In this document: positions 6,265 through 55,212 of the stretch, one piece after another | Layout of the letters: each line of letters opens with the position of its first letter | Position numbering within the stretch: the stretch's first letter is position 1 | Virus record (IMG/VR): IMGVR_UViG_3300029518_000200 | Length of the DNA: 64,000 nt | Strand: one strand, 5' to 3' | DNA from: a virus | Lineage: Duplodnaviria; Heunggongvirae; Uroviricota; Caudoviricetes | The notes under the pieces: generated by a model | Told to the model about the DNA's origin: nothing | The model's database searches: none | The model's input: the letters and a program-made list of their open reading frames with translations, nothing else | Translations under genes and position numbers: made by a program

Positions 6265-7077
6265 TTGTATATGTTTTCACTAGAATATCTTAGACGAACG
6301 AGCCTTTTAAATGGAAAAGAAAAATTAATGGGAAATATAAGCTCTACAATAAGCAATATTGACAAAATGTCATTTATTGTAGTAGACAGAGATGGCAAGG
6401 AATACAAACATTTCAATAAAAAGGATTATGATGTTAAAATACTTGATCTTGTGCATCCTCAAAAATCAAACCGATATAATCCATTTGCTCATATACATAA
6501 TGATGCAGACGTTTTGTCTATGATTAATTCACTTTTTACTTTTAATATAAATGAAATAAAGCCGAATTCAGTTTTTGATATGGCAGAAAGAAAATTATTA
6601 ACTGCATTTTGTTTTTATGTATTGGACAAATATAAAGATCAGCCAGATAAGCAAAATTTTACATATATAAATAAAATACTTGCAACATTACATACAACAG
6701 ATGATTTTGATGGATTTTTTAACGATTTTTATAAGCTAAATGAAGAGAAACCGGCATATTATTATTATAAAGAAGCAAGACGATGTAGTTCAGATTCATT
6801 TAAAGTAGTTATCATATCCATGGGTTTAAGATTAAGTGTATTTAATATCCCTCAAATAGCAGATTTAACGGCTGCAGATGATTTTGATATCGAAAATCTT
6901 GGTAATAAAAAAACTGCAGTATTTATAAATATTCCAACATCCGATACCTTTCTTAATTTTATTGCAAATATGCTTATTATGCAGGCTTTTTCATTGCAAC
7001 AATTAGTAGCACACAATAAGAAAAAATATAATGTGGCGTTCGTTCTTGACGAATATTTTAATGTCAATAATTCATGA
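6265..7077 (+). CDS. VirD4/TraG-like type IV coupling-protein fragment. It has no Walker A motif and ends right after the Walker B motif; likely a pseudogene or remnant.
   Basis: D..GKEY, NRYNPF, dpfW-like helix and FVLDEY blocks align to the T4CP core; paralogous to ORF 35050-36213. Confidence 0.45.
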   Translation: MYMFSLEYLRRTSLLNGKEKLMGNISSTISNIDKMSFIVVDRDGKEYKHFNKKDYDVKILDLVHPQKSNRYNPFAHIHNDADVLSMINSLFTFNINEIKPNSVFDMAERKLLTAFCFYVLDKYKDQPDKQNFTYINKILATLHTTDDFDGFFNDFYKLNEEKPAYYYYKEARRCSSDSFKVVIISMGLRLSVFNIPQIADLTAADDFDIENLGNKKTAVFINIPTSDTFLNFIANMLIMQAFSLQQLVAHNKKKYNVAFVLDEYFNVNNS

Positions 7078-8210: not shown

Positions 8211-9650
8211 ATGACTTATAATTCGGAACGACGAATTGATAAATATACTTTCATATCACTTATGCTGGTATATTTTTATGATGCATTTTCAAGTGCGGCA
8301 CTGCTTTCAGAAAAGGGCGTGTCGGGACTGTATATGCTTCATCTAATAGTAGCATTAGTTGGAGCAGCTGTCACAATAGCTGCATTTGTAAAACAAAGTG
8401 GAGCAATAATCTGTGGATGGATAATGCTGCTTACATATCTGGCCGCTCATGCAATACTCATGTTATCAAGTATATTTTTATATTCATTTGTACTTGCATT
8501 TCCATTGTTTCTGTTATCACTGGGATATTTAAACGAAATACTTATTAAGATAAACAGTATCGGAATAGGAACTGCCGCAATAATTCACTATTTAATGTGC
8601 ATAGGCAAAACGGACAAATCCAGTGTAGCGCTTGCTGTCATAATTATTGTGTTGTGCATGATAGCTGTTAATCTGATTGGAAAACATCTTCAGCTTCTGA
8701 CAGAAGAGATTGCTGACCAGATATTAGGGGAAGCAGAAGAAAAGAAGAAACAGGCAGACAAGACACTGGCTATTGCTCAGGATATTGCTGCAAATGCTAA
8801 GGATGCTGCAGAGATGCATGAGATTACAAACGAAAAGCTTCAAATAAGCAATACTGCCATGCAGAACATTGCTGACAGTACAGAGACAACAGCTGAGTCG
8901 GTACAGACACAGGCAGGGGCATGTATTGATGTTACAGATGATCTCGAGCAGATGAAACAGGGTATTGCAGATTTTCTGTCGTTAGTTAAATCGGCAGGAG
9001 AATCAGTATCACAGGGACGTGATTACGTAGATGTGCTTAAGGCAAAAACGACAGAGGTTAATGGGTCAAACGATGAGATTGTGAATTCGCTTGAGAATAT
9101 TCTTGCCAACATAAATGATGTAAAGGATATTTTGGAAACAATTAATTCAATTTCCGCACAGACGAATTTACTCGCACTCAACGCTTCCATTGAAGCATCG
9201 CACGCAGGAGATGCAGGCAGGGGATTTGCTGTTGTCGCAGAGGAAATCAGAAAGCTTGCTGAACAGACCAAGGAGTCGCTTGTCAGCATTAATGAGCTTG
9301 TAGACAACTTTGTTGACAATGCGGATGGAACCAAAGAGTGTCTTAAAAAGTCTGTACATGCAGTAAAAGAACAGAATGATGCACTCGCAAGTACTGCTGC
9401 CCAGTTTGAGAACATTGACAATGGTATTTCGGACTTAAAGAATGTGTCCGACACAATTGAAGATAAAATTACGCACATATCTGCTTCAATTCAGCTTGTG
9501 TCTGACAATATAAGAGATTTGTCCGCAACAAGCGAAGAAGTAGCAGCGGCATCGTCAGAGGGACTTTCCACATTTGCAGATGCAATGGGAAGCTATGAAA
9601 CATTAGGAAATAAACTGACAGAGATTGATGCGCTTGCAGGAAAGCTGTAA
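8211..9650 (+). CDS. methyl-accepting chemotaxis protein-like transducer (multi-TM N-terminus plus MCP signalling domain)
   Basis: [35 protein letters not shown] is the conserved MCP hairpin tip. Confidence 0.7.
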
Positions 9651-10859: not shown

Positions 10860-11293
10860 AAAAGGAGTGGAATTATTATAGCAACGAAACAATTCATTCA
10901 GACTTTGGCATTTTTAGCCATGTTAGCGGGTTTTGTATTTTTTGTATTTGGGATTGTGCATACAGTTGCAAACGAAACGGACGACATTGGCAAAAAAGGA
11001 GGAGTATGCCTTATTATTATAGGCGTATTGGGTTTCTTTGCTGGAGTTGCAGGATGCTACGTGAGTAGTATAGTTGGATGATGCTGACAAAGACAGCGAG
11101 TAGGAAAAGAAACATGGGCAGGAATTAATTTTCCTGCCTTTTGCATATGAAAGGTGGCATTTATGGCGATTAAGCTTGCTGACGAGATTATTGAAGAAAT
11201 AAAGAATAGACAGCCAATTGTCGTGACAGATGTGTCTGCAAACGGCGAGGAGTATGAACAATGGCTATATGAAGAAGATAAGGAGAAAAATCT

Positions 11294-11620
11294 ATGAACA
11301 GAATAAATATTAATGGAAAAACAATCGCATGTTCAGGAACTAATGTTATCATTAACAATGGAAAGGTTATTGTAGATGGCGATATAGTTCAGGAATGCAA
11401 TAGTGGTAATATTAAAGTAACCATCGAAGGCGATGTAAATAAAATACGGATCAGTAGAGGATTAGTAGAAATTCACGGCAATTCAGGAAACATTGATTGC
11501 GGTGGTAGTTGTGAAGTCGGTAGAGACGTCAAAGGAGATATAGATGCTGGTAGTTCTGTAACTTGTGGTAATGTGTCAGGAGATATAGATGCTGGTGGAA
11601 GTGTAAGATGTAGAAGATAA
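11294..11620 (+). CDS. Gly/Val/Ile repeat beta-helix-like protein (bactofilin-like?)
   Basis: reiterated G-x-I/V-x-G-D-I/V units. Confidence 0.35.
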   Translation: MNRININGKTIACSGTNVIINNGKVIVDGDIVQECNSGNIKVTIEGDVNKIRISRGLVEIHGNSGNIDCGGSCEVGRDVKGDIDAGSSVTCGNVSGDIDAGGSVRCRR

Positions 11621-11631
11621 GGAGAAAAACA

Positions 11632-11997
11632 ATGGGAATTAATACAGAAACTGTAGCATTTATTGGATTTTTAAACAAGCTTGCAAAGATGAGTGAGGAT
11701 GATATCCATCCATTTTCAACTGTTACGCCTGATAATAAAAAGGGTCTTTTTTACGACGATACCTCACCTATTAATGCTGAGACTTCTCTGGATAATTATG
11801 TATCTTATCCATTAATTGCTGATTATTTCATTGGTCCAAATATATTTACAACATGGACTGAGAAATATGTAAATGAACGTATTAAAATTGTTGTAAATGT
11901 GAATGATGAGGGAGAAGCATATGTTAATGTTACATCAGAAGATGATAATAGACTTTACATTGTTATCAAAGATGGGTACTGGTACAATGTAGAGTAA
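11632..11997 (+). CDS. hypothetical protein
   Basis: ORF with SD aggagaaaaac. Confidence 0.45.
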   Translation: MGINTETVAFIGFLNKLAKMSEDDIHPFSTVTPDNKKGLFYDDTSPINAETSLDNYVSYPLIADYFIGPNIFTTWTEKYVNERIKIVVNVNDEGEAYVNVTSEDDNRLYIVIKDGYWYNVE

Positions 11998-12232
11998 GAT
12001 AGGAAGCATAATAGCATAATATTAGTAAAGGGTATAGCTGTTAACTATACCTTTTTTTTATGTTTCAAAGTATCTCTTTATGTCTTCATTTGGAATAATC
12101 CTGTGCTCGTTTCTGATATAATTTGTTTTCCACGGCATCTGTTTTTGTGTAATTTCTGTAAGAGAAGCTACTGAATATTCTGCACATTTATTTATAATAT
12201 CTTTCATTTGTCTAAAGAAATCTGCAATTATT

Positions 12233-12275
12233 TTTGGACAAAATCTTCTTTGTAAATATTATATATGAAAAAGAT
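12233..12275 (+). promoter_or_regulatory. class-B sigma-70-like promoter TTGGAC-17-TATTAT (near-identical copy at 21001-21040)
   Basis: ttttggacaaaatcttctttgtaaatattatatat. Confidence 0.5.
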
Positions 12276-12400
12276 TAATTTGATGGGAATTACCGTGTAA
12301 AAAGTAATTTGGTCTTTTCAAATTACTGACAGATTTACCTGTTCACAGCGGAACCCATATTTATTATATAGGATCGTTTTAGACAAAGGAGAGAAGATTA

Positions 12401-14386
12401 ATGGCGGAAAGATGGATACAGGACAGGCATTATCTCATGGTGCCGTTTGATGATAAAGACAGAGCCAAGAGACTTGGTGCCAGATGGGATTTTGAAAAGA
12501 AGAAATGGTATTATACGGGCAATGATGGCAGGAGATTTGCTGAATGGATACCGTCTGAAGCAGCAAAGGTATCGGATTTGTCAGAAGAGCAGCAGCAGAT
12601 GATTGCGCTTGCAAAAGAGGGTAGGAATGTACTTGTTGACGCATGCATTGGAAGCGGAAAGACAACTACAATTCAGACTCTTTGTAATGAGGTGACTGAC
12701 AAACAGATACTATATCTTACCTACAACAGACTTTTAAAGGTGGATGCCAAGAGCAAAATTACTGAAAACAATGTAACTGTTACCAACTATCATGGCTTTG
12801 CTTCCATGATACTCAGAAATGCAGGTATATCCTCAGGTGTTGCTGAGCTCATACAGACTCTGCTTGCAAATAGTGAGAAGATTGTTATTCCAAGGTATGA
12901 TCTTTTAGTTATTGATGAGTATCAGGACATTGACAGGGAGATTTCCGAGATGCTTGAGTGTATTAAGGACCAGAATCCTGGCATACAAATTGTTGCTGTT
13001 GGCGATATGAAGCAGAAGATTTATGATAAAACAACGCTTAATGCGGCAGAATTCATCAGTGATTTTCTTGAAGACTTTGAGAGAGTATCGTTTACACAGT
13101 GTTTTCGTTTATCTGCACCTCTTGCAGCACGTCTTGGCCGCATATGGGAGAAGCCTATTAACGGCGTAAACAAAAACTGTACAGTCAGAACAATGGCGCT
13201 GGACGATACTGTCAGTTTTCTTGCTTCCCAGAATCCTGCTGACATATTATGTCTTGGCAAGCGTGACGGGCTGATGGCATCAGTGTTAAATGAATTGGAG
13301 AGAAAATATCCAAGCCGTTTTAACAAAAGAACTGTTTACGCAAGCATTAATGACAGGGATTCGGGTGGAGCAACAGAGCCTACAAAATCAACTGCCATTT
13401 TCACAACATTTGATGGCAGCAAGGGACTGGAGCGAAAGATATGTGTGGTATTTGATTACACCCTTGACTATTGGTCATCAAGAAGTCTTGCACCTGATAC
13501 AAAATATGAGATACTCAGGAATATTTTCTGTGTTGCAATGAGCAGGGGAAAACAGCAGATAATCATTGTTGCCAATGATCCAAATCAGGTATTATCTGAA
13601 GATATATTGTCAGTACCATTTAAGACAAGAAAAGAATATTTAAGAGCATTTCAGGTAAGCGAAATGTTTGATTTTAAGTATGACGAGGATATTGAGGACT
13701 GTTATTCGTTAATAAGAAAACGTAAGATAAGACGTTCTGACAATACGGTTATTGATATTGACTCAACTGACTGCATGATTGACCTGTCACCATGCATAGG
13801 CATTTATCAGGAAGCCAGCTTTTTCAAGAAGTATGATATTATGCAGCAGATAGAATATGTAAAGGATTTTCATGATGACAAAGCGCTGCTTCAGCTAAAA
13901 CCCGGTGCAACCATGGAAGACAAGGTATTATTCCTTACTGCATATGAGACTAAGCAGGACAGATATTATTGTCAGGTAAAACCGCCATTTATTACAGATG
14001 AGCAGTCTGAAGCCATTCACAAAAGACTTGCTACCGAGTTTACTGGTAACGAAAACGTGCAGCAGGACTTTACCATGAGTCTTTCTGATGCGTCAGGTGT
14101 GCCATACTGTATCTGTGGACGACCGGACGTTATCAAGAACAAAACTGTATTTGAGCTTAAATTTGTCAGTGAACTGGAACACAAACACTTTTTACAGTGT
14201 GCTGTTTACATGGTAGCATTTGGATTAAAAAAAGGAATTCTTTGGAATGTAAAAACCAATGAACGGTATTCAATATCAATTCCTGATGAAGAAATGTTTA
14301 TTCAGGCAGTAATGAAAACTGTTACCAAGGGATCCGCAAAGAGAGCGTACATTGAGACATGTGACTGCGCAAAAAGAGCATCATAA
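12401..14386 (+). CDS. UvrD-like SF1 helicase fused to a C-terminal PD-(D/E)xK (RecB/Cas4-like) nuclease. It carries an N-terminal DUF5710-like KW motif.
   Basis: Walker A CIGSGKTTTI, motif II LLVIDEYQD, and a C-terminal GRPDV..ELKFV..QCAVYMV nuclease signature. Confidence 0.7.
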   Translation: MAERWIQDRHYLMVPFDDKDRAKRLGARWDFEKKKWYYTGNDGRRFAEWIPSEAAKVSDLSEEQQQMIALAKEGRNVLVDACIGSGKTTTIQTLCNEVTDKQILYLTYNRLLKVDAKSKITENNVTVTNYHGFASMILRNAGISSGVAELIQTLLANSEKIVIPRYDLLVIDEYQDIDREISEMLECIKDQNPGIQIVAVGDMKQKIYDKTTLNAAEFISDFLEDFERVSFTQCFRLSAPLAARLGRIWEKPINGVNKNCTVRTMALDDTVSFLASQNPADILCLGKRDGLMASVLNELERKYPSRFNKRTVYASINDRDSGGATEPTKSTAIFTTFDGSKGLERKICVVFDYTLDYWSSRSLAPDTKYEILRNIFCVAMSRGKQQIIIVANDPNQVLSEDILSVPFKTRKEYLRAFQVSEMFDFKYDEDIEDCYSLIRKRKIRRSDNTVIDIDSTDCMIDLSPCIGIYQEASFFKKYDIMQQIEYVKDFHDDKALLQLKPGATMEDKVLFLTAYETKQDRYYCQVKPPFITDEQSEAIHKRLATEFTGNENVQQDFTMSLSDASGVPYCICGRPDVIKNKTVFELKFVSELEHKHFLQCAVYMVAFGLKKGILWNVKTNERYSISIPDEEMFIQAVMKTVTKGSAKRAYIETCDCAKRAS

Positions 14387-14394
14387 CAATAATA

Positions 14395-14427
14395 AAAGGA
14401 GCAGCATTATTTGCCGCTCCTTTTTAG
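14395..14427. terminator. bidirectional rho-independent terminator
   Basis: AGGAGCAGC..GCCGCTCCT followed by ttttt. Confidence 0.6.
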
Positions 14428-14428
14428 T

Positions 14429-16225
14429 TTACTTATTTGCATCGTCCCATGCAGACTTGACATTATTCCAGACGTTCTTGGTTCTATTGTACAAGTAATC
14501 CGGAATAGTAAGCTCTCCGATAAATGCATTATTAAAAGCGCTTTCATTGAGATAAACATGGCCATCAAGATTGTCTGCAAAGGTCAGCGTGTCAATATTG
14601 GTGTCTGCGAATGCATTCTCGCTGATCATTACATTCTTCCATGAAACATCTGCTGTAACATTCAGGTTCTTAATGTAACACTCAACAAATGCACATTCAT
14701 CTACATTCCAGACTTTATCCGGCAGAATAATTTCTGTCATGAGTTTGTTTCCACCGCATCTGTAAAAGATATAAGGTGCAAAATACTCAATGGAACTTTC
14801 TGATAAGTCTGCCAGTTTAAGGTTTTTGCATTTATAAAAGGCATTGGGGCCAAGAATCTTGCAGCATTTTGACAGTTTGACAGATGTGAGTCCGCTGCAT
14901 TCAAAGGTACTTCCGCCAATATCAGCTGCAGATGAAAGGTCAATCTGTTTGAGGCTGTCTGTGCCATAAAATGCATATTTACCCAGCTGAACAATCTTGT
15001 CTGCATTATTCACCTTTTTAAGGGCTTCGCAGCTCATAAACATTCCCTCTGGAACTACAAACTCTTTTGCAGGAAGTGTTACTTCTTCGAGGTTACAGCA
15101 GTCCCTGAAACATTCAGTTTCTACGAACTCTACTGAGTCTGGAAGGGTAATACTCTTAAGGCCAGACTCGGAAAAAGCCTGTCTGCCAATTCTTGCCAGT
15201 TTCTTTGGCAGGACAATTTTTGTCAGTTGTCTAGTATTAAAAAATGCATAATTGCTGATTTTAGTGACATTCTCTGGTACTTCAAATTCTTTTAAGTCTG
15301 TGTAATCAAAAGCACCATAGCCAATGGATGTGATTTTGCTATCCATTCCTGTAAACGAAACTTTTTCAAGGCTGGTACAGTGAGAGAATAACGTCTGTGG
15401 AATTTCTTTTGTGTCCTGAGGAATGTTTGTGCCTCTTACTTCAATTACGGCTTCTGTCAGTTGATGACATCTATAAAAGACTTCCTTTGTTCCTTCAATG
15501 GAGTTCAAGTTTTCTACAGTGATGTGTTTTATTCCGCATCCTGAGAAAGCACTGTCGTTGACACGAATGTCCTTTGGCAGAACATCGAAATCAAGAGACT
15601 TACATCCCGAGAAACCACCTTTACCAATAGTCTTGATGCTGCTAAGATCAATGCTTTTAAGGTTTTCACAGAGCCTGAAACATATACCCGGAACCTTTAT
15701 GTCTGTTCCTTTAAATGTAACAGTTTCAAGGTTCTTACATTCATCAAACATTGCCATTGTAAGCGGAAAATTTGCAGGGATTGTTACCTGATTAAGTTTT
15801 GAATTGCTAAACGTGCGTGCGCCAACATATTCAGGATGTTCAGGCAGGTCCACTGACTCTATTCCGGAGTCTGTAAATGCATCAACGTCAAGATGCTTGA
15901 GATTCTTTGGCAGATGAACCTTTTTAAGCATCTTGCATCCGAAGAATGCCTGTGCCTCAATAATCTCAACACTTTCAGGGATGTTAATTTCCTTAAGGTC
16001 TGCGCACTCAAAGAATGCATTCGTCTCAATAGTTTTGAGCCCTTCTGGCAGCACTACTTTGGTAACATTCGATTTATTTGCGAATACGTTTGAACCAATA
16101 ATTGTAATGCCTTTTGGTACAATAACTGTGCCTGTTGCGTTACATTCGTATAAAACGTTATTATCTGTAACAAATATTTCCTCCTTAATGTTCTCTACGC
16201 CTGTTTTGATAATGTTTACTTTCAT
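14429..16225 (-). CDS. BspA-type leucine-rich-repeat (LRR_5) protein, no signal peptide
   Basis: about 20 repeats of the AF..C..L..I.IP..V..IG..AF pattern; paralog of the next two LRR genes. Confidence 0.7.
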   Translation of the reverse strand: MKVNIIKTGVENIKEEIFVTDNNVLYECNATGTVIVPKGITIIGSNVFANKSNVTKVVLPEGLKTIETNAFFECADLKEINIPESVEIIEAQAFFGCKMLKKVHLPKNLKHLDVDAFTDSGIESVDLPEHPEYVGARTFSNSKLNQVTIPANFPLTMAMFDECKNLETVTFKGTDIKVPGICFRLCENLKSIDLSSIKTIGKGGFSGCKSLDFDVLPKDIRVNDSAFSGCGIKHITVENLNSIEGTKEVFYRCHQLTEAVIEVRGTNIPQDTKEIPQTLFSHCTSLEKVSFTGMDSKITSIGYGAFDYTDLKEFEVPENVTKISNYAFFNTRQLTKIVLPKKLARIGRQAFSESGLKSITLPDSVEFVETECFRDCCNLEEVTLPAKEFVVPEGMFMSCEALKKVNNADKIVQLGKYAFYGTDSLKQIDLSSAADIGGSTFECSGLTSVKLSKCCKILGPNAFYKCKNLKLADLSESSIEYFAPYIFYRCGGNKLMTEIILPDKVWNVDECAFVECYIKNLNVTADVSWKNVMISENAFADTNIDTLTFADNLDGHVYLNESAFNNAFIGELTIPDYLYNRTKNVWNNVKSAWDDANK

Positions 16226-16426
16226 ATTGTATTTCCTCCTTTATTTTTGTTTAATATGAAAATTAGTTACAGGATAAATATGAGTTTTAATGGAAGACGA
16301 GCAAAAGATTATAGTAAAAGTGAAAGTTCTGTGATATAATAATTGTAGAAACAGAAAACGTTAATTTTGTATAAACTCCATCTTAATTATGCAGTTAATA
16401 ACATAAATTAAGAAAGGAGAGATGAT

Positions 16427-17206
16427 ATGAAATTAACGGAAGAAGAAAAGAAAGCGAAGGTTGAACCCTTCAGACCTATTGACGACGTATTCTTTGAAGC
16501 ATTAGCTCAAAACCCGAAAGTTTGTCAGGAGATTCTAAGAGTAATCTTGGAAGATGATAAACTTATCGTGGATGAGGTAATAACTCAATGCAGCGAAAAG
16601 AATATCTACGGCAGGTCAGTAAGGCTTGATGCTCTTTGTACATTGGGTACAGGAGAAAAGTGCAACATCGAAATTCAGAGGTCTGACAATGATGATCATC
16701 TAAAACGAGCGCGCTTTAATGCATCCAGCATAACAGTCAAATCGTCAGAGATTGGCAGCAAGTTTAAAGATGTTGTTGATGTGTGTATTGTTTATATATC
16801 CCAGTTTGATATATTCAGACATGGCAGAACGATATATCATGTTGACAAGGTGATCAGAGAGACTGGAATTGTAGTAGATGATGGACTTAAAGAAGTGTTC
16901 GTCAATACCGCAGTTAACGATGGTTCAACCATTTCGGAACTTATGTCTTGTTTTCTTGCTAAAGAAGTGGACAATCCTAAGTTTCCGATGCTGTCAAATG
17001 AGGTAAAACGGTTAAAAAACACGGAAGGAGGTCTTGATTCTATGTGTGATTTAATGGAGAAATACAATCAGGAGGCTGTCGATAAAAAGATTATTCCTGC
17101 GGTTAAAAAGCTTGCGAAAGCTGGCACATCTGTAAAAGATTTAGCTGAAGCATTTGATAAGTCAATAGATGAAATCGAGGCCATCCTTGATTCTTCTGAA
17201 GATTAA
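16427..17206 (+). CDS. Rpn/YhgA-like PD-(D/E)xK recombination-promoting nuclease / putative transposase
   Basis: PIDDVFF..L, D..C..G.G.KCNIEIQ motifs. Confidence 0.6.
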   Translation: MKLTEEEKKAKVEPFRPIDDVFFEALAQNPKVCQEILRVILEDDKLIVDEVITQCSEKNIYGRSVRLDALCTLGTGEKCNIEIQRSDNDDHLKRARFNASSITVKSSEIGSKFKDVVDVCIVYISQFDIFRHGRTIYHVDKVIRETGIVVDDGLKEVFVNTAVNDGSTISELMSCFLAKEVDNPKFPMLSNEVKRLKNTEGGLDSMCDLMEKYNQEAVDKKIIPAVKKLAKAGTSVKDLAEAFDKSIDEIEAILDSSED

Positions 17207-17269
17207 AATTAAAAATTGTAACCAAAAAGACGTCTTATTAATGAGGCGTCTTTTTTTTTGCATTATAAA

Positions 17270-17300
17270 AACAGAGCCCCCATAAAGAGGCTCTGTTAAC
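17270..17300 (-). terminator. rho-independent terminator after LRR gene 17304-19052
   Basis: aacagagcccccataaagaggctctgtt. Confidence 0.6.
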
Positions 17301-17303
17301 GGT

Positions 17304-19052
17304 TTACTGTATCTTATCAATTGCATCCTTAAATCTGTCATACATATGATCAGGTATAGCAAGTTTGCCAACTTTTGCGTCTTCAAATGCAAGAGAATGA
17401 ACGACAGTTTTCATCAGGTGATTAGTATCATCGGTAAATATTAATTCACTAATAAATGATTTGCTAAAAGCATTATTGCCTACATATGTACCTGCGTTTA
17501 TGGTAAGTTTGTTGAGCTTGGCTCTAAGAAAACAGCTATTGTCAAAAGCTGTAACATCCTGAGGGAGCTGAACATCTTTTAATCCTTTGCAGAAGCAGAA
17601 GCACTGGTAAGGAATTTCTTGTATTTTGCAGGCTTTCATATCTACTGTCTGAAGATTCTTGCAATGATGGAACGCTGATATGCCAAGTTGTGAAAATTTA
17701 TCAGAAAAGACTGCTTCACGAATACCTGTATAAGCAAACGCCATAAGATCTAATGATTGCAGCTTGCTGAAATCAAATGTTTCCAGATTTTTGCAACCAT
17801 AAAATGCATGGTCACAAATAGTGTCTACGTTCGGTACATTTACTGTTTTTAAGCTGCAGCAGTCTTCAAAAATTCCTGATGGAATTTTGGTAACTGATTC
17901 TGGCAGGGTAACTGCTGTTAGTTCTATGCAGTTATAAAATGCATAGTCCCCAAGCTTTTTTATCTTATTAGGAATAACAATGTCTTTTAATCCGCTTCCT
18001 GCAAATGCCATTGTCCCTATCTGTCTAAGGTTCTCAGGCAGATGAATATTTTCAATACCACTGTCGTAGAAAGCTTCTTTGCTGATTGTTTTGATTGTGT
18101 CAGGCAATGAAATTGTATTCAGGTTTTTTGTTTCTTTGAATGCAGCAGCTTCAATGACAGTCAGGTTTTTGGTACGTCCTGTAAACACAACTGTCTGTAA
18201 ATTTTTACATCCTTTAACCAATGCACTTGATACGGATGTTGGTCCGTCAGCAACATTGATTGTCAGTTTTTTCAGAGATTTACAGTCGGCGAATACCCTG
18301 TTGCAGACTTTAGAGATGTCTTCAATGATTACATCTGTGGCACCTGATTCCTCAAATGCACTTACTGCAACCAGTGTATCAGCCGGGATAGTACTTACTG
18401 ACAGATTCTGGCATCCGCGGAATGCTTCATCTTTTATGAGAGCAGTCTTTGTTATATCAATTTCTGTCAGATTAATGCAGTTACAGAAGCATCTTTCTGG
18501 AATTGTGATGTGGCTGCCAAGAAGATTGATACTATGAAGCTTCTGACATTTTTCAAACATTGCTGAATTGAGTGTGAAGTTTTCAGGAATATCAGTTGTC
18601 TCAATGTCTGTTCCGGCAAACACTTCGGTTCCAACAAAGTTGACGTTTTCTGGAAGAATTAGCTGCTTAATACCTGCTTCATAAAACGCATAGTCGCTAA
18701 TTTCCTTCATCGTCTTAGGCAGTATAACTGTCTCCAGAAAAAAGCATCCTTTGAAGGCTCCGTGTCCAATAACTTTAAGTGTCTCTGGGAAATTAATTTT
18801 TCTGAGCTTGGTACAAAAATTAAAAGCATCAGAACCAATAGTCTCAATTCCCTCTGGCAGAACAACTTCTTCTACATTAGTTCCTGCAAAACACGCTCTG
18901 CCAATAGTTTTTATACCCTTTGGGATGATGATTGTTTTTTGGCCATTTGGTGTGCACTTGATAAGTGTGTCATTATCATTTGTGAACACCGGTTCCTGTT
19001 TACAAGTTTCTCCTTTGACATATCCTTCTGTTTTGATAATTTGTAATTCCAT
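17304..19052 (-). CDS. BspA-type leucine-rich-repeat protein, no signal peptide
   Basis: LRR_5 repeats; conserved N-terminal ...KQEPVFT and C-terminal IPDHMYDRFK shared with 19163-20932. Confidence 0.7.
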   Translation of the reverse strand: MELQIIKTEGYVKGETCKQEPVFTNDNDTLIKCTPNGQKTIIIPKGIKTIGRACFAGTNVEEVVLPEGIETIGSDAFNFCTKLRKINFPETLKVIGHGAFKGCFFLETVILPKTMKEISDYAFYEAGIKQLILPENVNFVGTEVFAGTDIETTDIPENFTLNSAMFEKCQKLHSINLLGSHITIPERCFCNCINLTEIDITKTALIKDEAFRGCQNLSVSTIPADTLVAVSAFEESGATDVIIEDISKVCNRVFADCKSLKKLTINVADGPTSVSSALVKGCKNLQTVVFTGRTKNLTVIEAAAFKETKNLNTISLPDTIKTISKEAFYDSGIENIHLPENLRQIGTMAFAGSGLKDIVIPNKIKKLGDYAFYNCIELTAVTLPESVTKIPSGIFEDCCSLKTVNVPNVDTICDHAFYGCKNLETFDFSKLQSLDLMAFAYTGIREAVFSDKFSQLGISAFHHCKNLQTVDMKACKIQEIPYQCFCFCKGLKDVQLPQDVTAFDNSCFLRAKLNKLTINAGTYVGNNAFSKSFISELIFTDDTNHLMKTVVHSLAFEDAKVGKLAIPDHMYDRFKDAIDKIQ

Positions 19053-19126
19053 ATTATTTTCCTCCTTTATTATTATTTTTTAATATGATTACAGAATAAA
19101 TATGAGTTTTAATGAGAGATAAGTAA

Positions 19127-19160
19127 AAAACAGAGTCCCCATAGAGAGACTCTGTTAACA
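19127..19160 (-). terminator. rho-independent terminator after LRR gene 19163-20932
   Basis: aacagagtccccatagagagactctgtt. Confidence 0.6.
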
Positions 19161-19162
19161 GT

Positions 19163-20932
19163 TTACTGCATTTGGCTGATCGCTTTTTTAAACCTGCCAT
19201 ACATATGATCAGGAATAATGAGCCTGCCAACTTTTGCGCCTTCAAAAGCGGATATGTCAACAATAGTTCTTGTTGGACTGTCTGTATCATCAACAAATTC
19301 CAGTTCATCAATAACTGCTCCGCTGAGTGCATGGTAATCAATACGCATTCCAGCCTTTATTACGAGGCTGTTAAATTTTACTGACTCAAAACAACCGTCA
19401 GCGAACTTGCGAACATTTAACGGAAGCTTAATGTCTGTAAGCTTATTGCAATCTTCAAAACAGCGTGTTGATATTGTTTTGATATTATCGCAGGCTGACA
19501 TATCAACCGACTGAAGATCTTTGCAACTACAGAATATTGACGGCTGAAGCTTTGTCAGTTTGTTAGAAAGCACCGCTTTACGAATGCCTGTGCCTGCAAA
19601 CGATGTACTTCCAAGTTCTTTGATCTGACTGAAGTCAAAGGCTGTTAACATTTCGCAGTTACAGAAAGCGCTGTCACAAACAACTGTTATGTTTGGAGCA
19701 TTTACAGTTTTCAGCTTGCAACAGTCTATGAAAGCGTATCTTGGAATTGTCGTAATTGACTCTGGGAGTGTAACATCTGTTAACTCATAACATCTATTAA
19801 ATACCCCTCTGCCAAGCTTTGTTACTCTATCCGGAACAATAATACTTTTAATGCCTGATGAACCAAATGCACCATTACCTATCTGTCTAAGGTCCTCAGG
19901 CAGATGAATGTTTTTAATGCCACTGTTATAAAAAGCGCACTGCTCAATTGTTCGGATACTGTCTGGCAGTGAGATTTCTCTCAGCATTGTTGTTCCCATG
20001 AATGCAGCAGCTTTGATGCTTGACAGATTCTCAGTATGTCCTGTAAAAGCGACGGTCTGCAAACTTGTGCAGTGTGCTGCCAGTTCTTTAGGAATGCATA
20101 AATTATCGGCAATTGCTAGTCCGTCAGGAACATTGATTGTCAGTTTCTTCAGAGATTTGCAGTCAGAGAATGCTTTTTCCTCGACTTCTGAGATGTCTTC
20201 GATAGTAACATCTTCTACTCCTGTTTTCATAAATGCGCATGCACTGACATATGTATGGGCAGGAATGACATTTACTGACAGGTTGTGACACTCAAGGAAT
20301 GCAGAGTCCTTTATGAACAATGCTTTGCTGATGTCTATTTCTTCCAGATTAGTACAGTAGTAGAAGCATCTTTCCGGGATAAGCACCCAATTTGATTCAA
20401 AATTTACACTGCGAAGCTGCTGACAGTTAGAAAACATTGCTTTGTTCAGTCTGAGGTTTTTAGGAACGTTAATACTTTTGACCTTTATAGCACTAAAAAC
20501 ACTAATTCCTGTTGATAGAACATTTTTTGGATCCGGCAGAGTTAACTGTTTAATGCCTGCATTGTAAAAGGCGTAATCGCCTATTTTTGTTAGGGTTGTA
20601 GGCAGTATAACTTCTACCAGTGAACCACAATTCATAAAAGTCCTGTCCTTTACGGTCTCAAGTCCTTCAGGAAAATTAATCTTTTTGAGATTAAAACAGT
20701 CTGCAAATGCTTTTGACTCAATACACTTAATTCCCTCTGGCAGGATTACTTCTTCCACATCGGCACTGGCGAAGCACATTTTGCCGATAGTCTTCACATC
20801 TGCTGGGATTGTTATTGCTGTACAGCCGTTTAATTCACAGCTGATAAGCGTACTGTTCTCAATTGTGAATACTGGTTCCTGTTTATAGGTTTCTTTCTTC
20901 ATGCGTCCCGTTTCTTTGATAATTAATTCCAT
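19163..20932 (-). CDS. BspA-type leucine-rich-repeat protein, no signal peptide
   Basis: LRR_5 repeats; paralog of 17304-19052. Confidence 0.7.
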   Translation of the reverse strand: MELIIKETGRMKKETYKQEPVFTIENSTLISCELNGCTAITIPADVKTIGKMCFASADVEEVILPEGIKCIESKAFADCFNLKKINFPEGLETVKDRTFMNCGSLVEVILPTTLTKIGDYAFYNAGIKQLTLPDPKNVLSTGISVFSAIKVKSINVPKNLRLNKAMFSNCQQLRSVNFESNWVLIPERCFYYCTNLEEIDISKALFIKDSAFLECHNLSVNVIPAHTYVSACAFMKTGVEDVTIEDISEVEEKAFSDCKSLKKLTINVPDGLAIADNLCIPKELAAHCTSLQTVAFTGHTENLSSIKAAAFMGTTMLREISLPDSIRTIEQCAFYNSGIKNIHLPEDLRQIGNGAFGSSGIKSIIVPDRVTKLGRGVFNRCYELTDVTLPESITTIPRYAFIDCCKLKTVNAPNITVVCDSAFCNCEMLTAFDFSQIKELGSTSFAGTGIRKAVLSNKLTKLQPSIFCSCKDLQSVDMSACDNIKTISTRCFEDCNKLTDIKLPLNVRKFADGCFESVKFNSLVIKAGMRIDYHALSGAVIDELEFVDDTDSPTRTIVDISAFEGAKVGRLIIPDHMYGRFKKAISQMQ

Positions 20933-21089
20933 ATTATTTTTTCCTCCTTTATATAATTGAATATGAAATAAAAGCTACAGAATAAATATGGATTTTGTTT
21001 TGGACAAAATTGGATTTGTAAATATTATATATATAAGAATTAGGCTGTTTACGGCCAAGTAATTTATACATACATAGGAGGACATTATT

Positions 21090-22016
21090 ATGTCAGAAAC
21101 ACAAAGACCACAGATCAGCGCTATGATAACCAGAATGGACATCAATCTGCTGACAGAAAGACATGGATCCAGTGCAATTGCTCCGGACAATGATTACGTA
21201 TTCGGAATGTGCAGAAGTCTTGAGGACTGTATTGAACCGACAAGCAGCGATGAATATGCTGATATTATCACAATGGTTAAGGATTATTATGCAGCAGAGT
21301 ATTTAAGAACACTTATAAGACGCATTGCAGGAGTCAGATACGCAGATGCTAAGAGCCAGAAAGAATTCTGCGACAAGTGTCGCAAGCTGTATTTTATTAC
21401 AGTTGATGAGAACAATAATGATTTCTTATATGACATTCCTGACTGCAAGGACATTAGCTTTAAACATGAGTTTGTTAACTGGAATGATCTGAATACAAAG
21501 TCACCGTTTCTTGGACTTCTTGTCATGATGGGTTCATATACTGCTTCGCAGACTGCCATGCACATGGCTTCACACTGGGAGGAGAAAATAGCGGATGCTT
21601 ATGATGATGATGTTAACGCTATTGTTAATCAGATCTGGGCAAAGAGATTTCGTTTTGAAGATGTCAGCGATGTTGACAAGACAATTACATGCGTAGGTGT
21701 CTATGCTGCTGATGAAGATGGTAACAGAACTACTTCGGCAGTTCCATTACATTACATTGATTGTGATGACGACTTGTTTTCCGGCATTACTGCTGACGAT
21801 ATTACATGCGTGCCAATTAACATTGTTGCCGAGGGAATACTTGATACACTTAACAATTTAAGCATGCAGATTGGAGTAGAGTCTCTGATTAACTTCTACA
21901 ACATCATTGAGGAAGCAAAGGGAGAAGATGATCTCTGCGATGGTGATTGTGACAACTGTGAGTGCTGCGAAGATTGTGCTGACGACGAGTCAGAATTTGA
22001 CGAGGTTGATGATTAA
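21090..22016 (+). CDS. hypothetical highly acidic protein with a Cys/Asp/Glu-rich C-terminal tail
   Basis: ORF after a class-B promoter; tail DDLCDGDCDNCECCEDCADDESEFDEVDD. Confidence 0.5.
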   Translation: MSETQRPQISAMITRMDINLLTERHGSSAIAPDNDYVFGMCRSLEDCIEPTSSDEYADIITMVKDYYAAEYLRTLIRRIAGVRYADAKSQKEFCDKCRKLYFITVDENNNDFLYDIPDCKDISFKHEFVNWNDLNTKSPFLGLLVMMGSYTASQTAMHMASHWEEKIADAYDDDVNAIVNQIWAKRFRFEDVSDVDKTITCVGVYAADEDGNRTTSAVPLHYIDCDDDLFSGITADDITCVPINIVAEGILDTLNNLSMQIGVESLINFYNIIEEAKGEDDLCDGDCDNCECCEDCADDESEFDEVDD

Positions 22017-22094: not shown

Positions 22095-24197
22095 TTGAGA
22101 AAAGGTCAGGAGAAGCTGATTAAAAGAGCAGAAGAACTGCTGCCAAAAGAATTTGTGGAAAAGCTCATGGACGAGTCGTTTACCATTGAACAGCTTGAAT
22201 CGTTATTTCGCTGGATGTTTTGGTTCAAAGACTGCCCGGAAATACTTGATGACTGGGATACTTTTTGTCAGGATGCATTTTCTCTCAAGCATGTATATGC
22301 GATAACAGGAGACTGGCAGCGGACACATGAACTCTGTACTTACATGAAAGAAAAATTTCATGGCTGCAGGTATTATGTCATGGATGATTACTGGCAGGCA
22401 TTTGCTTACAGGATATATTCTGCGAAAAAGGATGATCAGTACTTATTCAACAAGGATGATATGACACATATCCTTGATTATATACGTGAAAATATTCTTT
22501 GCAACGATTATTCTGATTGCAAGTCGAGTAAGGACTTTTTAGGAGTTTCTGATGAATTCAGTGATTACAGTGACTTTATGTATAAATTTATAAAAGTAAA
22601 TTCTGGCATAGGGCTTGCGCTGGTATTAATTGAAGAAGGCACATGTTCTAAAGACATGGATGAAATCTTAAGGATTATACGGCTTACGTCTCAGATGGTT
22701 AACGGTGGCATGGAAGCGAGGGCACGGTGTTATATTAAAGCAGGCATTACTGACGAAGAGTGGATTCAGTACGAACAGATGATTGAGAATAATGTTTTTA
22801 ACAGGAATATTGTGGCAGCAGAAATTGCCTTCAAATATTATCCGGGCTTTAAGGATCTTGTTGACAGCATTATGGAAAGAAATGATGCATCCTTATATTT
22901 CATCAGTAACGAGCTGGGTAACGGTTACAGCAGTGGACGTATAAATCTTACTAACACTGAGTTTGTCGAGCCGATCTTTAATACATGTACTAAGCTTGAC
23001 TGCGCGGAATTTGGCAGCGAAAATATTGTGTCTGTTAATGAGCCAGTCATAAAGTTTTCATGGAAGATTACTTTCTCAGGAATATTCTTAACGTTTAGAA
23101 AATACGAAAGCACTGCCATATATAATGCACATTCGCGGGATGACTCCAATTATGGAGATGAACCATTATATTCGTGCCGACATGATGGACGCACTAAATT
23201 GGACAGAACATATCTGTTTACGAATGATTATAGCGTTCTTATGCAGATTCCATCAGGAAAATGGGTACCAGCCGGTTTTCATACAATTAACAATGATGTC
23301 AGAAAAGGATGCGGCTTTATAGGAACTATATTATCGTGGTTTTTTCAGCGTATTAAAGATGCAAAAGAATGTGTGTGGAAAGATATTATGGCATATTCTG
23401 TCAGGGATTATGACCTGCTGCCAGCATTTACCTGCAACGAGATTACTGCTGGGCACACTCTTAATGAAGTAATGAATGCCCATTATAAAAATGCAGGCTT
23501 TATCGACTGGAGCAGATGTGACCTGCGCCTTGGGTATCTCATTATGCAGGCCCTGCCACTTGTTAATGAAAAAAGCAGAAACTTTCTGCTGGCAAACAAA
23601 TATATGAGCTTTGAAGAATTCATGAAAACCTATTGTGTTCATGCCAAGAGAATTTACATTGATCCGGAAATAAAAAGAGTGGATTCAAGACGTTATGTTG
23701 TTAAAAGATTTTTATTTGAAATCATTCAAAAGAGAATTGGTGCTGACATAGATCCAATTATTTATGATTATATTGATATGTCAGAAATGCTGCACAGAAA
23801 GATTTCAATCATGTTTACATCTGAAAAGAAGGTTAATGATGCGCATGATGATCTGGCGAAGGAGCTTACGGCTAAAAACACTCCAAATGTAAAGGTTCCC
23901 AAGAATTCAAAGTTTAATCGTCTCGCAAAGCTGCTGCCAGATGATATGGAATGGATTAAATCTAAAAGGAGACTTGTTCGGGAAGGCAGTGAAATGCACA
24001 ACTGTGTTGCCGAATATGCGAATAAAATCAACAAAGATTCCTGTGCTATATATTCATTTGTGTATAACAACAAGCGGTATACAGTAGAATTTGTTGCATA
24101 CAAAAACAGGTATTCCATTAAGCAGCTCTATGGCGTCTGCAACAGCGAACCGGAAGCAGGCGTTGAGGATTACGTAAAAGGATTTTTAGCAGAATAA
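22095..24197 (+). CDS. large hypothetical protein (700 aa). The C-terminal block EGSEMHNCVAEY...KRYTVEF may be PcfJ-like; this is uncertain.
   Basis: long ORF followed by a rho-independent terminator. Confidence 0.5.
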   Translation: MRKGQEKLIKRAEELLPKEFVEKLMDESFTIEQLESLFRWMFWFKDCPEILDDWDTFCQDAFSLKHVYAITGDWQRTHELCTYMKEKFHGCRYYVMDDYWQAFAYRIYSAKKDDQYLFNKDDMTHILDYIRENILCNDYSDCKSSKDFLGVSDEFSDYSDFMYKFIKVNSGIGLALVLIEEGTCSKDMDEILRIIRLTSQMVNGGMEARARCYIKAGITDEEWIQYEQMIENNVFNRNIVAAEIAFKYYPGFKDLVDSIMERNDASLYFISNELGNGYSSGRINLTNTEFVEPIFNTCTKLDCAEFGSENIVSVNEPVIKFSWKITFSGIFLTFRKYESTAIYNAHSRDDSNYGDEPLYSCRHDGRTKLDRTYLFTNDYSVLMQIPSGKWVPAGFHTINNDVRKGCGFIGTILSWFFQRIKDAKECVWKDIMAYSVRDYDLLPAFTCNEITAGHTLNEVMNAHYKNAGFIDWSRCDLRLGYLIMQALPLVNEKSRNFLLANKYMSFEEFMKTYCVHAKRIYIDPEIKRVDSRRYVVKRFLFEIIQKRIGADIDPIIYDYIDMSEMLHRKISIMFTSEKKVNDAHDDLAKELTAKNTPNVKVPKNSKFNRLAKLLPDDMEWIKSKRRLVREGSEMHNCVAEYANKINKDSCAIYSFVYNNKRYTVEFVAYKNRYSIKQLYGVCNSEPEAGVEDYVKGFLAE

Positions 24198-24277: not shown

Positions 24278-25416
24278 GTATTAAGAATATATGATACCGG
24301 ATAGTTGCATACAGTATCAGCAATAAGCAATACTGTTTACAATTAAATAGTATCAAGAGTATATGATACTAATTGATTTGCTGACAAGGGTGGGCAGTAT
24401 TATTGGTATCAGTAATATATGATACCGGATTATTGCGGACAGTATTAGCTATGTATGATACTAATTGCTGGCGAATGGTATTACTAATATATGATACTTT
24501 TTAAGGAATGATTGTCAGCAGGATAAATGGTATCAGGTATGTATGATACTAAATGATTGTTAACAGTATTAGTATATACGTAATACTTTTGAAGATATAT
24601 GGTATCATACATGTGTGATACTATTTTGATAAGAAGAAACTGGTATCAGTATATATGTAATACCAGATAGCTGTAAACGGTATTACTAATATATGATACT
24701 AATTGTTGGCAAATGGTATTACTAATATATGATACTTTTTAAAGAATGATTGTCAGCAGGATAATTGGTATCAGGTATGTATGATACTAAATAATTGTAA
24801 ACGGTATTAGTATATACGTAATACTTTTTGAAAGTGTTTGGTATCAGCAATATGTGATACTAAATTATTTGCTGACAGGATAGCTTGTTAACGGTATTAC
24901 TATATACATGATACTATTTGCGGCAAAATGGTATTACTAATATGTAATACTTTTCAGGGATATTTGGTATTAGTAATATATGTTACCGGATAATCGGGTA
25001 TCAAGAATATATGATACCAATTAATTGCAAACAGTATTAGTATATACATAATACTTTTAAGCCAGTCTGGTATCAGATATGTGTAATACTATTTTAATAG
25101 GAAGAAACTGGTATCAGTATATATATGATACTAATTGATTGTAAACGGTATTAGTATATATGTGATACTTTTTGAAGGTATTTGGTATCAAGCATGTGTG
25201 ATACTAAATAGTTTGTTATGAGAATATTTGCTGACGGTATTAGTAATAAATGATACTAATTTGTGGCAGATGGTATTAGTAATAGATAATACTTTTCAGG
25301 AATATTTGGCAGCAGTGAGTTTGGTATTAAACATGTATGATACTAATTAACTGTAAACGGTATTAGTATATATATAATACTTTTTGAAAATATATGGTAT
25401 CAAGAATATATGATAC
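24278..25416. repeat. array of about 29 palindromic sites GGTATYA-N8-TGATACT, spaced about 35-50 bp apart, with a higher-order period of about 240 bp
   Basis: read directly; examples ggtatcagtaatatatgatacc, ggtatcaggtatgtatgatact, ggtattactaatatatgatact. Confidence 0.9.
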
Positions 25417-25978: not shown

Positions 25979-26048
25979 TTCTTTTAAATTTGTCTAAAAT
26001 CCATATTTGTATCACATTAAAAAATGATAATTAAAGAGGTGATACAAA

Positions 26049-27283: not shown

Positions 27284-27341
27284 TCTAAAACTCATATTTA
27301 TTATAGTCATATTAATTAAATAAAAAAGGAGGAAAAATATT

Positions 27342-37370: not shown

Positions 37371-37530
37371 ATAATTTCCTCCGTAAATGTAATCTGTTTT
37401 TATAAAATAATTATAACAAGAAATCCCATTTTTTACAATACAACATGTAGCGTGTAATGATTTACAATATACCATATATAGGACTAAATTAAGCCAAGAA
37501 CCCCATATGTAGTATTTAAGGTATCTCGTT

Positions 37531-37556
37531 ATTCGCATAATTGAAATTATGCGAAT
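37531..37556. repeat. perfect 26-bp palindrome ATTCGCATAATT-GA-AATTATGCGAAT, 160 bp upstream of the integrase start
   Basis: read directly. Confidence 0.8.
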
Positions 37557-44302: not shown

Positions 44303-44369
44303 ATTTCTCTCCATTCTACCTGCCCGCAAAGGACAGGATTTAAAAACCCATGCCCTTATCGGACAATTA

Positions 44370-44630: not shown

Positions 44631-44702
44631 ATTTTCTCCATTCTACCTGCCCATAAAGGGCAGGATTTAAAAACCCATGCTCTTATCGGACAAGTTTACA
44701 TG

Positions 44703-46835: not shown

Positions 46836-46946
46836 AGTGTTTTCCTCCTTTATTTTATTTATATATGAACATTATAAAGATGGATTTTCTACGCAAAAGA
46901 AAAGGACACTTCAATGTTAAAATGTCCTTTGTAAAGTTTACTATCT

Positions 46947-55196: not shown

Positions 55197-55212
55197 GTTT
55201 CCTCCAAATAAA

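Follow-up and report, generated by a model that had tools for sequence, protein, structure and literature searches.

The stretch of DNA examined in this study, called the window below, is a 64,000-nt sequence filed in IMG/VR as a member of the Caudoviricetes (record IMGVR_UViG_3300029518_000200), and the system in question is an array of three tandem genes within it that encode leucine-rich repeat (LRR) proteins. The genes, named here LRR1 (14429-16225, 598 aa), LRR2 (17304-19052, 582 aa), and LRR3 (19163-20932, 589 aa), all lie on the minus strand, and a gene for an Rpn-like PD-(D/E)xK nuclease (16427-17206, plus strand, 259 aa) is placed between LRR1 and LRR2. The array is bordered on one side by a conserved helicase gene (12401-14386, plus strand; DUF5710, UvrD-like, and PDDEXK_3 domains) and on the other by an open reading frame (ORF) called orf308 (21090-22016, plus strand), which is followed by a second conserved flank, the gene for a PcfJ-like protein (22095-24197, plus strand). 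As regards the anatomy of the genes and of the array, it is very probable that the three LRR genes are cassettes of a recombining, hypervariable array.

A preliminary description of the locus, made from the sequence without database searches, had noted three tandem, diverging LRR_5 paralogs of 580-600 aa, and this is confirmed by the lengths given above and by pairwise identities of 33-53%. The proteins can be aligned end to end, with LRR2 and LRR3 sharing 53% aa identity and LRR1 being 33% identical to either. All three belong to the Pfam family LRR_5 (PF13306), with scores of 324, 580, and 314 bits for LRR1, LRR2, and LRR3, respectively (E = 5e-98, 3e-177, and 5e-95), against a gathering cut-off of 27.7 bits. 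Repeat mapping identified a unit of 22-23 residues, AFxxCxxLxxIxLPxxVxxIgxx, that fills nearly the whole of each protein in approximately 18-20 copies. The AlphaFold2 model of LRR2 (predicted local distance difference test score, pLDDT, 93.5) is a single continuous solenoid from residue 20 to residue 582, capped by a beta-hairpin at the N-terminus and a short helix at the C-terminus, with disorder predicted for residues 1-17 only. As modeled, most of what had been described as conserved N- and C-terminal blocks of the family corresponds to these caps; LRR2 and LRR3 have the blocks in common, and the alignment finds them only in part in LRR1. A Foldseek search with the LRR2 model ranked 4FS7 first (E = 7e-15), with 4GT6, PcpA, and 4FDW next; 4FS7 and 4GT6 are solved LRR_5 structures from gut bacteria.

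The three genes also share their flanking signals, and each cassette is a self-contained unit of promoter-like box, strong ribosome-binding site, single-solenoid ORF, and hairpin terminator. A separate box and terminator for each gene had been proposed at the outset; the search returned three exact boxes and a hairpin 3' of every gene. The box CATATTTATYCTGTA occurs in exactly three copies, 44-50 nt 5' of each LRR ATG, where 0.7 chance matches would be expected; written in full, it is AAAAC(T/C)CATATTTAT(C/T)CTGTA, and the strong ribosome-binding site AAAGGAGG stands 5' of all three ATGs. The junction upstream of LRR1 (16226-16306, minus strand) carries the box as AAAACTCATATTTATCCTGTA at 16268-16288 together with its ribosome-binding site. 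Between LRR3 and LRR2, a conserved junction (19053-19162, minus strand) holds the LRR3 terminator (19129-19156), a box (19090-19110), and a ribosome-binding site, and is the sequence where cassettes are exchanged, while the junction upstream of LRR3 (20933-21000, minus strand) holds a box (20976-20996) and a ribosome-binding site. The LRR1 terminator hairpin (14394-14424, minus strand) is common to the convergent helicase gene, and the LRR2 terminator (17270-17297, minus strand), which consists of AACAGAGCCTCTTTATGGGGGCTCTGTT and a T-run, is homologous to that of LRR3 (repeat D1 of the locus).

The LRR cassettes use the general promoter-like signal of the element that carries them, since the core CATATTTAT, allowing at most one mismatch, lies 26-63 nt 5' of approximately 28 correctly oriented ORF starts across the window. 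The genes preceded by it include those for the relaxase, RecJ, FEN, the ligase, NlpC/P60, and a fusion of a guanylate kinase (GK)-like domain with LRR_5 repeats; 30 of the 106 core matches fall within 120 nt 5' of a same-strand ORF start (6% expected). Because the promoter-like motif AAAAYYCATATTTAT is unlike the standard sigma-70 -35/-10 pair, it may be read by a transcription factor or a sigma factor peculiar to the element. The motif recurs throughout the element, for example at 12356-12364, 26002-26010, and 27293-27301 on the plus strand and at 46874-46882, 51468-51476, and 63477-63485 on the minus strand, and most of the element's genes look like single units with their own box and often their own terminator.

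The behavior of the array in related elements was followed in 28 copies of the locus from gut metagenomes, in which the helicase is 96-99% identical in aa sequence to that of the window. Allele clusters were defined at 95% aa identity, and identities are given as aa values relative to the window, together with the ratio of nonsynonymous to synonymous divergence (dN/dS) and the synonymous divergence itself (dS). The helicase formed 2 allele clusters (dN/dS 0.03, dS 0.20) and PcfJ, at 89-97% identity, formed 3 (dN/dS 0.21, dS 0.11). Twelve clusters each were found for LRR1 (72-95% identity, dN/dS 0.21, dS 0.38) and LRR3 (63-93%, dN/dS 0.23, dS 0.87), and 6 for LRR2 (74-100%, dN/dS 0.31, dS 0.30); orf308 formed 9 (78-99%, dN/dS 0.16, dS 0.28) and the Rpn-like gene 5 (75-79% or 96%, dN/dS 0.09, dS 0.67). 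LRR3, the most polymorphic slot, falls into four deep lineages at 63-70% aa identity, and LRR1-3 are the most variable stretch in the approximately 12 kb that were compared between copies. The number of cassettes per array ranged from one to four: one plus a remnant in copy L087, two in L085 and L096, three in most, and four in L106.

Alleles are reassorted between slots: LRR2 allele 5 is paired with two LRR1 alleles (2 and 6) and six different LRR3 alleles, and LRR3 allele 11 is paired with LRR1 alleles 1, 5, and 6. In sliding-window comparisons of the window with four copies, identity changes abruptly from 100% to 71-77% at junctions, for example between the Rpn-like gene and LRR2, and similar switches occur within the LRR1 and LRR3 ORFs. 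The variation anticipated in related elements is thus strongly borne out, in cassette number, in alleles, and in switches at junctions. Obvious substrates for homologous recombination are the junctions, in which terminator, box, ribosome-binding site, and first and last codons are conserved. The diversity of the array is generated by homologous recombination between element lineages, with breakpoints both at these junctions and inside the ORFs. Reshuffling of this kind is typical of genes engaged in molecular arms races.

The raised dS of the LRR genes indicates that old alleles have been retained or imported by recombination; old alleles stay in circulation, and surface residues are under relaxed constraint. 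The dN/dS values of the LRR genes, at 0.2-0.35, point to purifying selection and are raised over the 0.03 of the helicase. When variation was mapped onto the repeat unit, using the 28 copies and 119 LRR2 alleles from a protein database, the core residues (A, F, C, L, I, L, P, V, and I) were invariant; polymorphic sites made up 33% of the AFxxCxx positions, 31% of VxxIgxx, 14% of the concave strand (LxxIxLPxx), and 6% of the core. The variation is concentrated at the x residues of AFxxCxx and Igxx, so that a single face of the solenoid varies, and classical LRR receptors use a different one. Along the length of the solenoid, no hot or cold segment was consistent across the three LRR classes.

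These observations can be brought together in a single reading, in which the array resides on a mobile element of Agathobacter rectalis and supplies cytoplasmic, protein-binding modules used in genetic conflict. The likeliest roles would be an immunity repertoire against incoming toxins or nucleases, or a set of inhibitors of the defenses of recipient cells, with binding specificity set by the variable AFxxCxx/Igxx face, and the Rpn-like gene would be a toxin or defense cassette resident in the same variable island. Taken as a whole, with anatomy and function blended, this reading seems to us evenly balanced between right and wrong. Its functional part, a cytoplasmic role in conflict, is tentative and somewhat less probable than that, and the most specific version, in which the reshuffled array neutralizes changing intracellular threats (polymorphic toxins or nucleases, as a Gram-positive, LRR-based counterpart of acquired interbacterial defense arrays would, or recipient defense proteins encountered during transfer) through alleles tuned at the AFxxCxx face, is unlikely as it stands. 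A cytoplasmic use of LRR_5 on this element is suggested by the GK-LRR fusion (49980-51440, minus strand, 486 aa), in which a P-loop kinase-like domain is joined to LRR_5 repeats, as the preliminary description had also noted; both the Guanylate_kin and the LRR_5 profiles match. The likeness to immune or anti-immune sensors that was drawn there is plausible, though PADLOC has no match for the LRR proteins. The fusion has no signal peptide, is preceded by the same box, and is conserved in the element lineage at 59-97% identity. An AlphaFold model of it, recommended as a check, was of too low confidence (pLDDT 52.9) except in the LRR part.

Among known systems, the precedents that fit best are LRR polyimmunity loci and orphan immunity arrays, together with the anti-defense cargo of conjugative elements (PMC11541004). 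LRR immunity proteins (the Imm-LRR class) occur in polyimmunity loci (PMC3482391), and orphan immunity arrays have been described on mobile elements of gut Bacteroidales (PMC12247911). Like these polyimmunity, acquired interbacterial defense (AID), and recombinase-associated AID (rAID) loci, the array is a tandem, same-strand set of signal-less genes on a gut mobile element, with gene number and alleles that vary among strains and with conserved intergenic junctions, and LRR proteins are listed among the immunity proteins of such loci. However, the cassettes of the window all belong to one family rather than a mixture, and the host is Gram-positive, in which any route of toxin delivery would differ (e.g., type VII secretion of LXG toxins). 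Unlike rAID loci, the array includes no recombinase in any copy, the nearest tyrosine integrase (36267-37538) being 15 kb away. The leading-region anti-defense islands of conjugative elements (PMC11541004) share with the window companion genes for an orphan N6/N4 methylase, SSB, RadC, a Macro-domain protein, a pentapeptide-repeat protein, and a toxin-like nuclease, and the LRR array lies approximately 5 kb from the MobV relaxase gene. Genes of those islands share the orientation of the transferred strand, whereas the LRR genes oppose their neighbors, and a full-text search of that study found no LRR family.

The evidence that weighs against a role in intracellular conflict is considerable. Positive selection was not detected, as dN/dS never exceeded 1 in whole genes, in repeat-position classes (highest value 0.61), or in recent pairs (the youngest LRR pairs gave pN/pS values of 0.65 and 0.82, from small counts), and relaxed constraint combined with recombination could explain the pattern of variation. 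The most variable positions also lie off the canonical concave beta-sheet. In Listeria internalins, lamprey variable lymphocyte receptors (VLRs), and the LRRs of plant nucleotide-binding LRR receptors (NLRs), variation is concentrated on the concave beta-sheet and dN/dS exceeds 1. These systems resemble the window genes in their invariant LRR core, variable surface, and mosaic alleles produced by recombination; in the window genes, however, the concave strand is relatively conserved, the AFxxCxx/Igxx face varies, and dN/dS is below 1. No toxin gene with an export domain was found near the array, although no systematic search for toxin-linked homologues was made. The solved LRR_5 relatives all carry a cell-surface annotation, and the matches of the LRR proteins in PADLOC, Pfam, and NCBIfam are generic only, with those in NCBIfam being to surface adhesins at scores far under threshold. 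To our knowledge, moreover, 580-600 aa is far beyond the size of known immunity and anti-defense proteins, and exceeds known immunity proteins several times over. The direction of the LRR genes, opposite to all of their neighbors, is a poor fit to an early-expressed leading-region operon. Finally, both the binding function and the cytoplasmic site of the LRR proteins are inferred.

The strongest competing explanation, which we nevertheless consider rather unlikely, is that the LRR proteins are BspA-type adhesins exported by a route other than Sec, such as the type IV secretion system (T4SS) of the element, the flagellar apparatus, or cell lysis. Their targets would then be mucosa, recipient cells, or other bacteria, and their variability would reflect immune, phage, or partner-specificity pressure. 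Known BspA-type proteins (Bacteroides ovatus BACOVA_04585, structure 4FS7; Faecalibacterium prausnitzii 4GT6; pneumococcal PcpA) have the same repeat family, fold, and AFxxCxxLxxIxLPxxVxxIg unit and often form multigene families, also on large plasmids. The surface annotation of the solved relatives favors export, as do the best NCBIfam matches (the adhesins HupY/LrrG and Gli349), the T4SS-type genes on the element, and a flagellated host. The first 17 residues are, in addition, conserved between paralogs and predicted to be disordered, as export signals often are. However, the NCBIfam matches score only approximately 130 bits against a cut-off of 1250, and known BspA-type proteins are secreted or surface proteins with signals or anchors and usually extra domains, whereas those of the window are bare solenoids encoded by exchangeable single-gene cassettes on a mobile element.

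The absence of a Sec signal, claimed from the start, also holds for all three proteins. By hydropathy inspection, none has the charged-then-hydrophobic N-terminus of a signal peptide, and none has a membrane segment, the Kyte-Doolittle 19-residue mean peaking at 1.24. No lipobox, sortase motif, or wall-binding or anchoring domain was found, including in the Pfam and NCBIfam searches, so that LRR1-3 lack every hallmark of a classical BspA surface protein (Sec or lipoprotein signal, membrane or wall anchor). The preliminary description had allowed that a corrected upstream start might reveal a signal peptide; a longer start cannot do so, because in-frame stops lie 6, 10, and 15 codons 5' of the LRR ATGs and AAAGGAGG precedes each ATG. 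Export is further opposed by the rigid solenoid that makes up the whole protein, with its 21-27 buried cysteines, and by the fusion of LRR_5 to a cytoplasmic kinase-like domain on the same element.

The role of the Rpn-like gene bears on two further explanations. As had been described, a gene of the Rpn-type PD-(D/E)xK class lies among the LRR genes: its product matches PF12784 (PDDEXK_2) at 33.8 bits, above the Pfam cut-off of 27.4, and the NCBIfam Rpn family TIGR01784 at 38.7 bits, under the cut-off of 52.1, with no match to PF04754. Residues D68, E82, Q84, and R94 are invariant across 11 alleles and match the essential residues of RpnA (D63, E82, Q84, and R94; PMC5350276). The last 45 residues are more variable than the remainder (mean identity among alleles 66% versus 91%), and GGAAGGAGG sits 10 nt ahead of a conserved internal ATG (M206, at approximately 17042), overlapping conserved Gly codons. 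Rpn antiphage toxins carry intragenic RpnS antitoxins (PMC10400941), and by analogy the ORF may encode an RpnS-like antitoxin of its own. The window gene therefore resembles Rpn systems (PMC5350276, PMC10400941) in its D...ExQ...R pattern, its variable C-terminal tail, and its internal ribosome-binding site and ATG, and differs in matching PF12784 where the Escherichia coli family matches PF04754 and in having no four-residue repeat variation in its tail.

The Rpn module measures approximately 970 bp and consists of a terminator (a hairpin at 17224-17255, plus strand), the ORF, and a promoter. Its insertion point within a junction is constant whether it occupies the LRR2/LRR1 or the LRR3/LRR2 slot, and it is missing from some junctions and copies. 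No clear terminal repeats or target duplication were found at its ends, where there is only a doubtful TATAAT on either side; in this, the gene behaves like the rpn genes, which are single-gene insertions without terminal repeats or target duplications (PMC10400941). From its sequence and context, the Rpn-like gene looks like a co-resident toxin or defense cassette of the variable island and not the engine of exchange.

It is markedly improbable that the LRR proteins and the Rpn-like nuclease form a two-part defense system, with the former as sensors and the latter as the released effector. The position of the Rpn-like gene inside the array in most copies and its intact, invariant catalytic residues would suit such a system, and Rpn proteins are documented antiphage toxins (PMC10400941). 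However, the arrays of copies L078/L160/L093 and L092 have no Rpn-like gene between or beside the recovered cassettes, the LRR partners change (LRR1/LRR2 or LRR2/LRR3), and Rpn alleles assort independently of LRR alleles in the 28 copies. The gene also has its own promoter and terminator and lies on the strand opposite the LRR genes, none of 69 unrelated, generic LRR_5 loci has an Rpn-type neighbor, and PADLOC returned no match. Rpn toxins, moreover, already have an intragenic antitoxin of their own (PMC10400941). LRR domains do serve as sensors in eukaryotic immune receptors, which counts in favor of the two-part system.

There is a similarly small chance that the cassettes are dispensable, drifting and decaying duplicates with no specific function, variable because they sit in an accessory region that recombines readily and is weakly constrained. 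Copies L085, L087, L088, L095, and L106 contain LRR ORFs that are split or truncated, cassette number varies, and dN/dS is below 1 everywhere, as drift would allow. However, most cassettes are intact, full-length ORFs despite up to 37% aa divergence, at least one intact cassette is found in every complete array, and the dN/dS values indicate purifying selection. The core residues, boxes, ribosome-binding sites, and terminators are all conserved, and the element is widespread, with more than 120 LRR2 clusters at 93-100% identity in human gut metagenomes on hundreds of contigs of up to 330 kb.

That the Rpn nuclease promotes recombination which exchanges or inverts paralogs within one element, as the preliminary description had suggested, is very improbable. 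When over-expressed, E. coli Rpn proteins do raise RecA-independent recombination (PMC5350276), and the Rpn cassette is found at junctions, in a position that varies among copies. However, none of the 28 copies is inverted, all LRR genes having the same orientation relative to the helicase, and the only inverted repeats at the locus are two chance-level 20-nt pairs, so the array is not an inversion system; unlike a shufflon or other site-specific inversion system, it has no inverted repeats at cassette ends. Nucleotide alignment of the window paralogs, another recommended check, gave approximately 65% identity (peaking at 80% in a 124-nt stretch at the 3' end) and no recent conversion tracts. 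Arrays without an Rpn-like gene between cassettes (L078, L093, and L092) are equally diverged, the Rpn-like gene is itself a polymorphic cassette, and the mosaics are assembled from alleles of separate copies of the element, which is what ordinary homologous recombination produces. Later work also characterizes Rpn proteins as toxin-antitoxin or antiphage nucleases and not transposases (PMC10400941).

The least credible alternative makes the element a large phage, in which the LRR proteins would be exchangeable components of the virion, either receptor-binding or injected, that dock through a conserved N-terminal peptide: the IMG/VR classification of related contigs, a GenBank virome record, the conserved N-terminus and variable body of the LRR proteins, and the predominance of single-unit genes under an element-wide promoter motif all speak for it, and are opposed by a neighborhood of DNA-processing and transfer genes, by the absence of any virion, packaging, or lysis gene in the 64-kb window, and by helicase relatives that occur on actinobacterial plasmids (40% identity) and in none of 50,697 phage records. 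The GenBank record, MT835474.1 (83,269 bp, human fecal), is labeled "UNVERIFIED: Bacteriophage sp." and has approximately 7.7 kb in common with the window; one LRR3-like gene, at 62% identity, lies in this shared part. With genes for VirD4, a VirB4/TraC-like ATPase, topoisomerase III, and two RecD2-like helicases, the record looks like a conjugative element and not a phage.

Judging from its gene content, the window is part of a mobile element with conjugation-type and plasmid-type genes. It encodes a MobV relaxase, PcfJ, two ATPases resembling type IV coupling proteins (T4CPs), NlpC/P60, SSB, FEN, RecJ, and an NAD-dependent ligase, as well as a tyrosine integrase, an orphan N6/N4 methylase, RadC, a Macro-domain protein, and a pentapeptide-repeat protein. 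The host was identified by a search with the ligase, which is 98% identical to that of A. rectalis M104/1, and positions 34377-56255 of the window are colinear with the M104/1 genome (FP929043.1:3646197-3668326) at 96.4% nt identity over 21.9 kb. The matching region lies near the end of the 3.70-Mb record, and since that record, by extrapolation, ends inside the element, the assembly cannot distinguish an integrated from a separate element; the GK-LRR gene of M104/1 is split into ORFs of 340 aa and 138 aa. Strong ribosome-binding sites and a chemotaxis-type gene are consistent with a flagellated Lachnospiraceae host, and A. rectalis is flagellated.

Close relatives of the LRR genes are confined to this element. 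The preliminary description had considered that the family might be chromosomal housekeeping in the host, a possibility that the genome scan disposes of: among 185,579 species-representative genomes, no LRR2 relative exceeded 31% identity over a long alignment, and just generic LRR_5 genes at 22-31% (up to 53% over short segments) were found. Because close relatives are missing from species-representative genomes, the element is best regarded as strain-variable cargo rather than housekeeping. A megablast search with the locus found no match in phage and plasmid collections. A profile built from the three-paralog alignment and searched against 1.84 billion representatives matched 437,914 cluster representatives, an output so dominated by giant LRR_5 proteins with many repeats that it is uninformative on this subfamily.

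Several other features of the element were recorded. Approximately 140 contigs from the human gut, the longest of 480 kb, encode a helicase with the same domain architecture at 52-66% identity; many of them are filed as viral in IMG/VR, and several measure approximately 370-390 kb. Apart from the helicase, the 10 kb to each side of it have nothing in common with the window, and these contigs may represent a separate family of very large elements. These loci were set aside as relatives of the element, as they contain no LRR array. The giant oral element "Inocle" was likewise considered and dropped; its size is similar to that of the longest contigs carrying the present element (up to approximately 330 kb), but the GC content of the window is 36% versus approximately 32% for Inocles, and the samples here are from the gut. 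The two short T4CP-like ORFs (6265-7077, 270 aa, and 35050-36213, 387 aa) share a strand and are separated by 28 kb; neither has a canonical Walker A motif, the second having GSAGMGNT. That they are one gene split by a 28-kb insertion was rejected, as they are paralogues with 25% identity over approximately 210 residues of the same region.

Within the 1.85-kb AT-rich gap between the PcfJ and MobV relaxase genes, positions 24404-25190 contain tandem repeats (a 124-nt unit repeated 3.4 times and a 37-nt unit repeated 2.2 times) built on the palindrome TGGTATCA..TATATATGATACCA, which makes this gap a candidate origin of transfer (oriT) or iteron-type replication origin. From 44000 to 64000, the minus strand carries a one-strand run of genes (NAD ligase, pentapeptide-repeat with DUF7666, Macro, GK-LRR, NlpC/P60, RadC, and orphan N6/N4 methylase) that is typical of anti-defense or establishment regions; the pentapeptide-repeat and DUF7666 protein matches PHROG 14105 (E = 6e-135).

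Of the genes closest to the array, orf308 is nearly as polymorphic as the LRR genes. Its product ends in an acidic, Cys-rich tail (CDGDCDNCECCEDCADDESEFDEVDD), its start variants range from 308 to 345 aa, and it has no family match in Pfam, NCBIfam, or PADLOC. In PADLOC-DB v2 there was likewise no match for LRR1-3, the Rpn-like ORF, PcfJ, or the GK-LRR fusion, and only the helicase gave generic, partial matches of the UvrD/GajB type. Upstream of the helicase, the stretch that separates it from the Band_7 gene (stretch 10900-12400) differs in gene content among copies L001-L008 and L243, some having ORFs of 121, 108, and 44 aa and others an ORF of 49 aa and a DUF4064 ORF of 67 aa. In copy L001, the MCP-signal gene (8211-9650) is broken into ORFs of 289 and 189 aa.

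LRR_5 families and variable cassette arrays on mobile elements are known kinds of system, and the way in which this array behaves in populations is of more interest than the reasons for which it was originally singled out. Few repeat proteins are as common in gut bacteria as those of the LRR_5/BspA type, which are routinely taken for surface adhesins; here the family appears as bare, signal-less solenoids packed as exchangeable cassettes, in one of the most abundant species of the human gut. Even if the function of these proteins proves to be ordinary, the array is a clean natural case of cassette-wise recombination and could be used as a metagenome strain marker for the element. If the LRR proteins are indeed intracellular binders used in genetic conflict, the array would offer a tractable system for LRR-based specificity in bacterial immunity or anti-immunity, with M104/1 as a cultured carrier isolate. 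In that case, part of the LRR_5 family would need to be re-annotated, and the family would gain a second, intracellular function of the immunity type.

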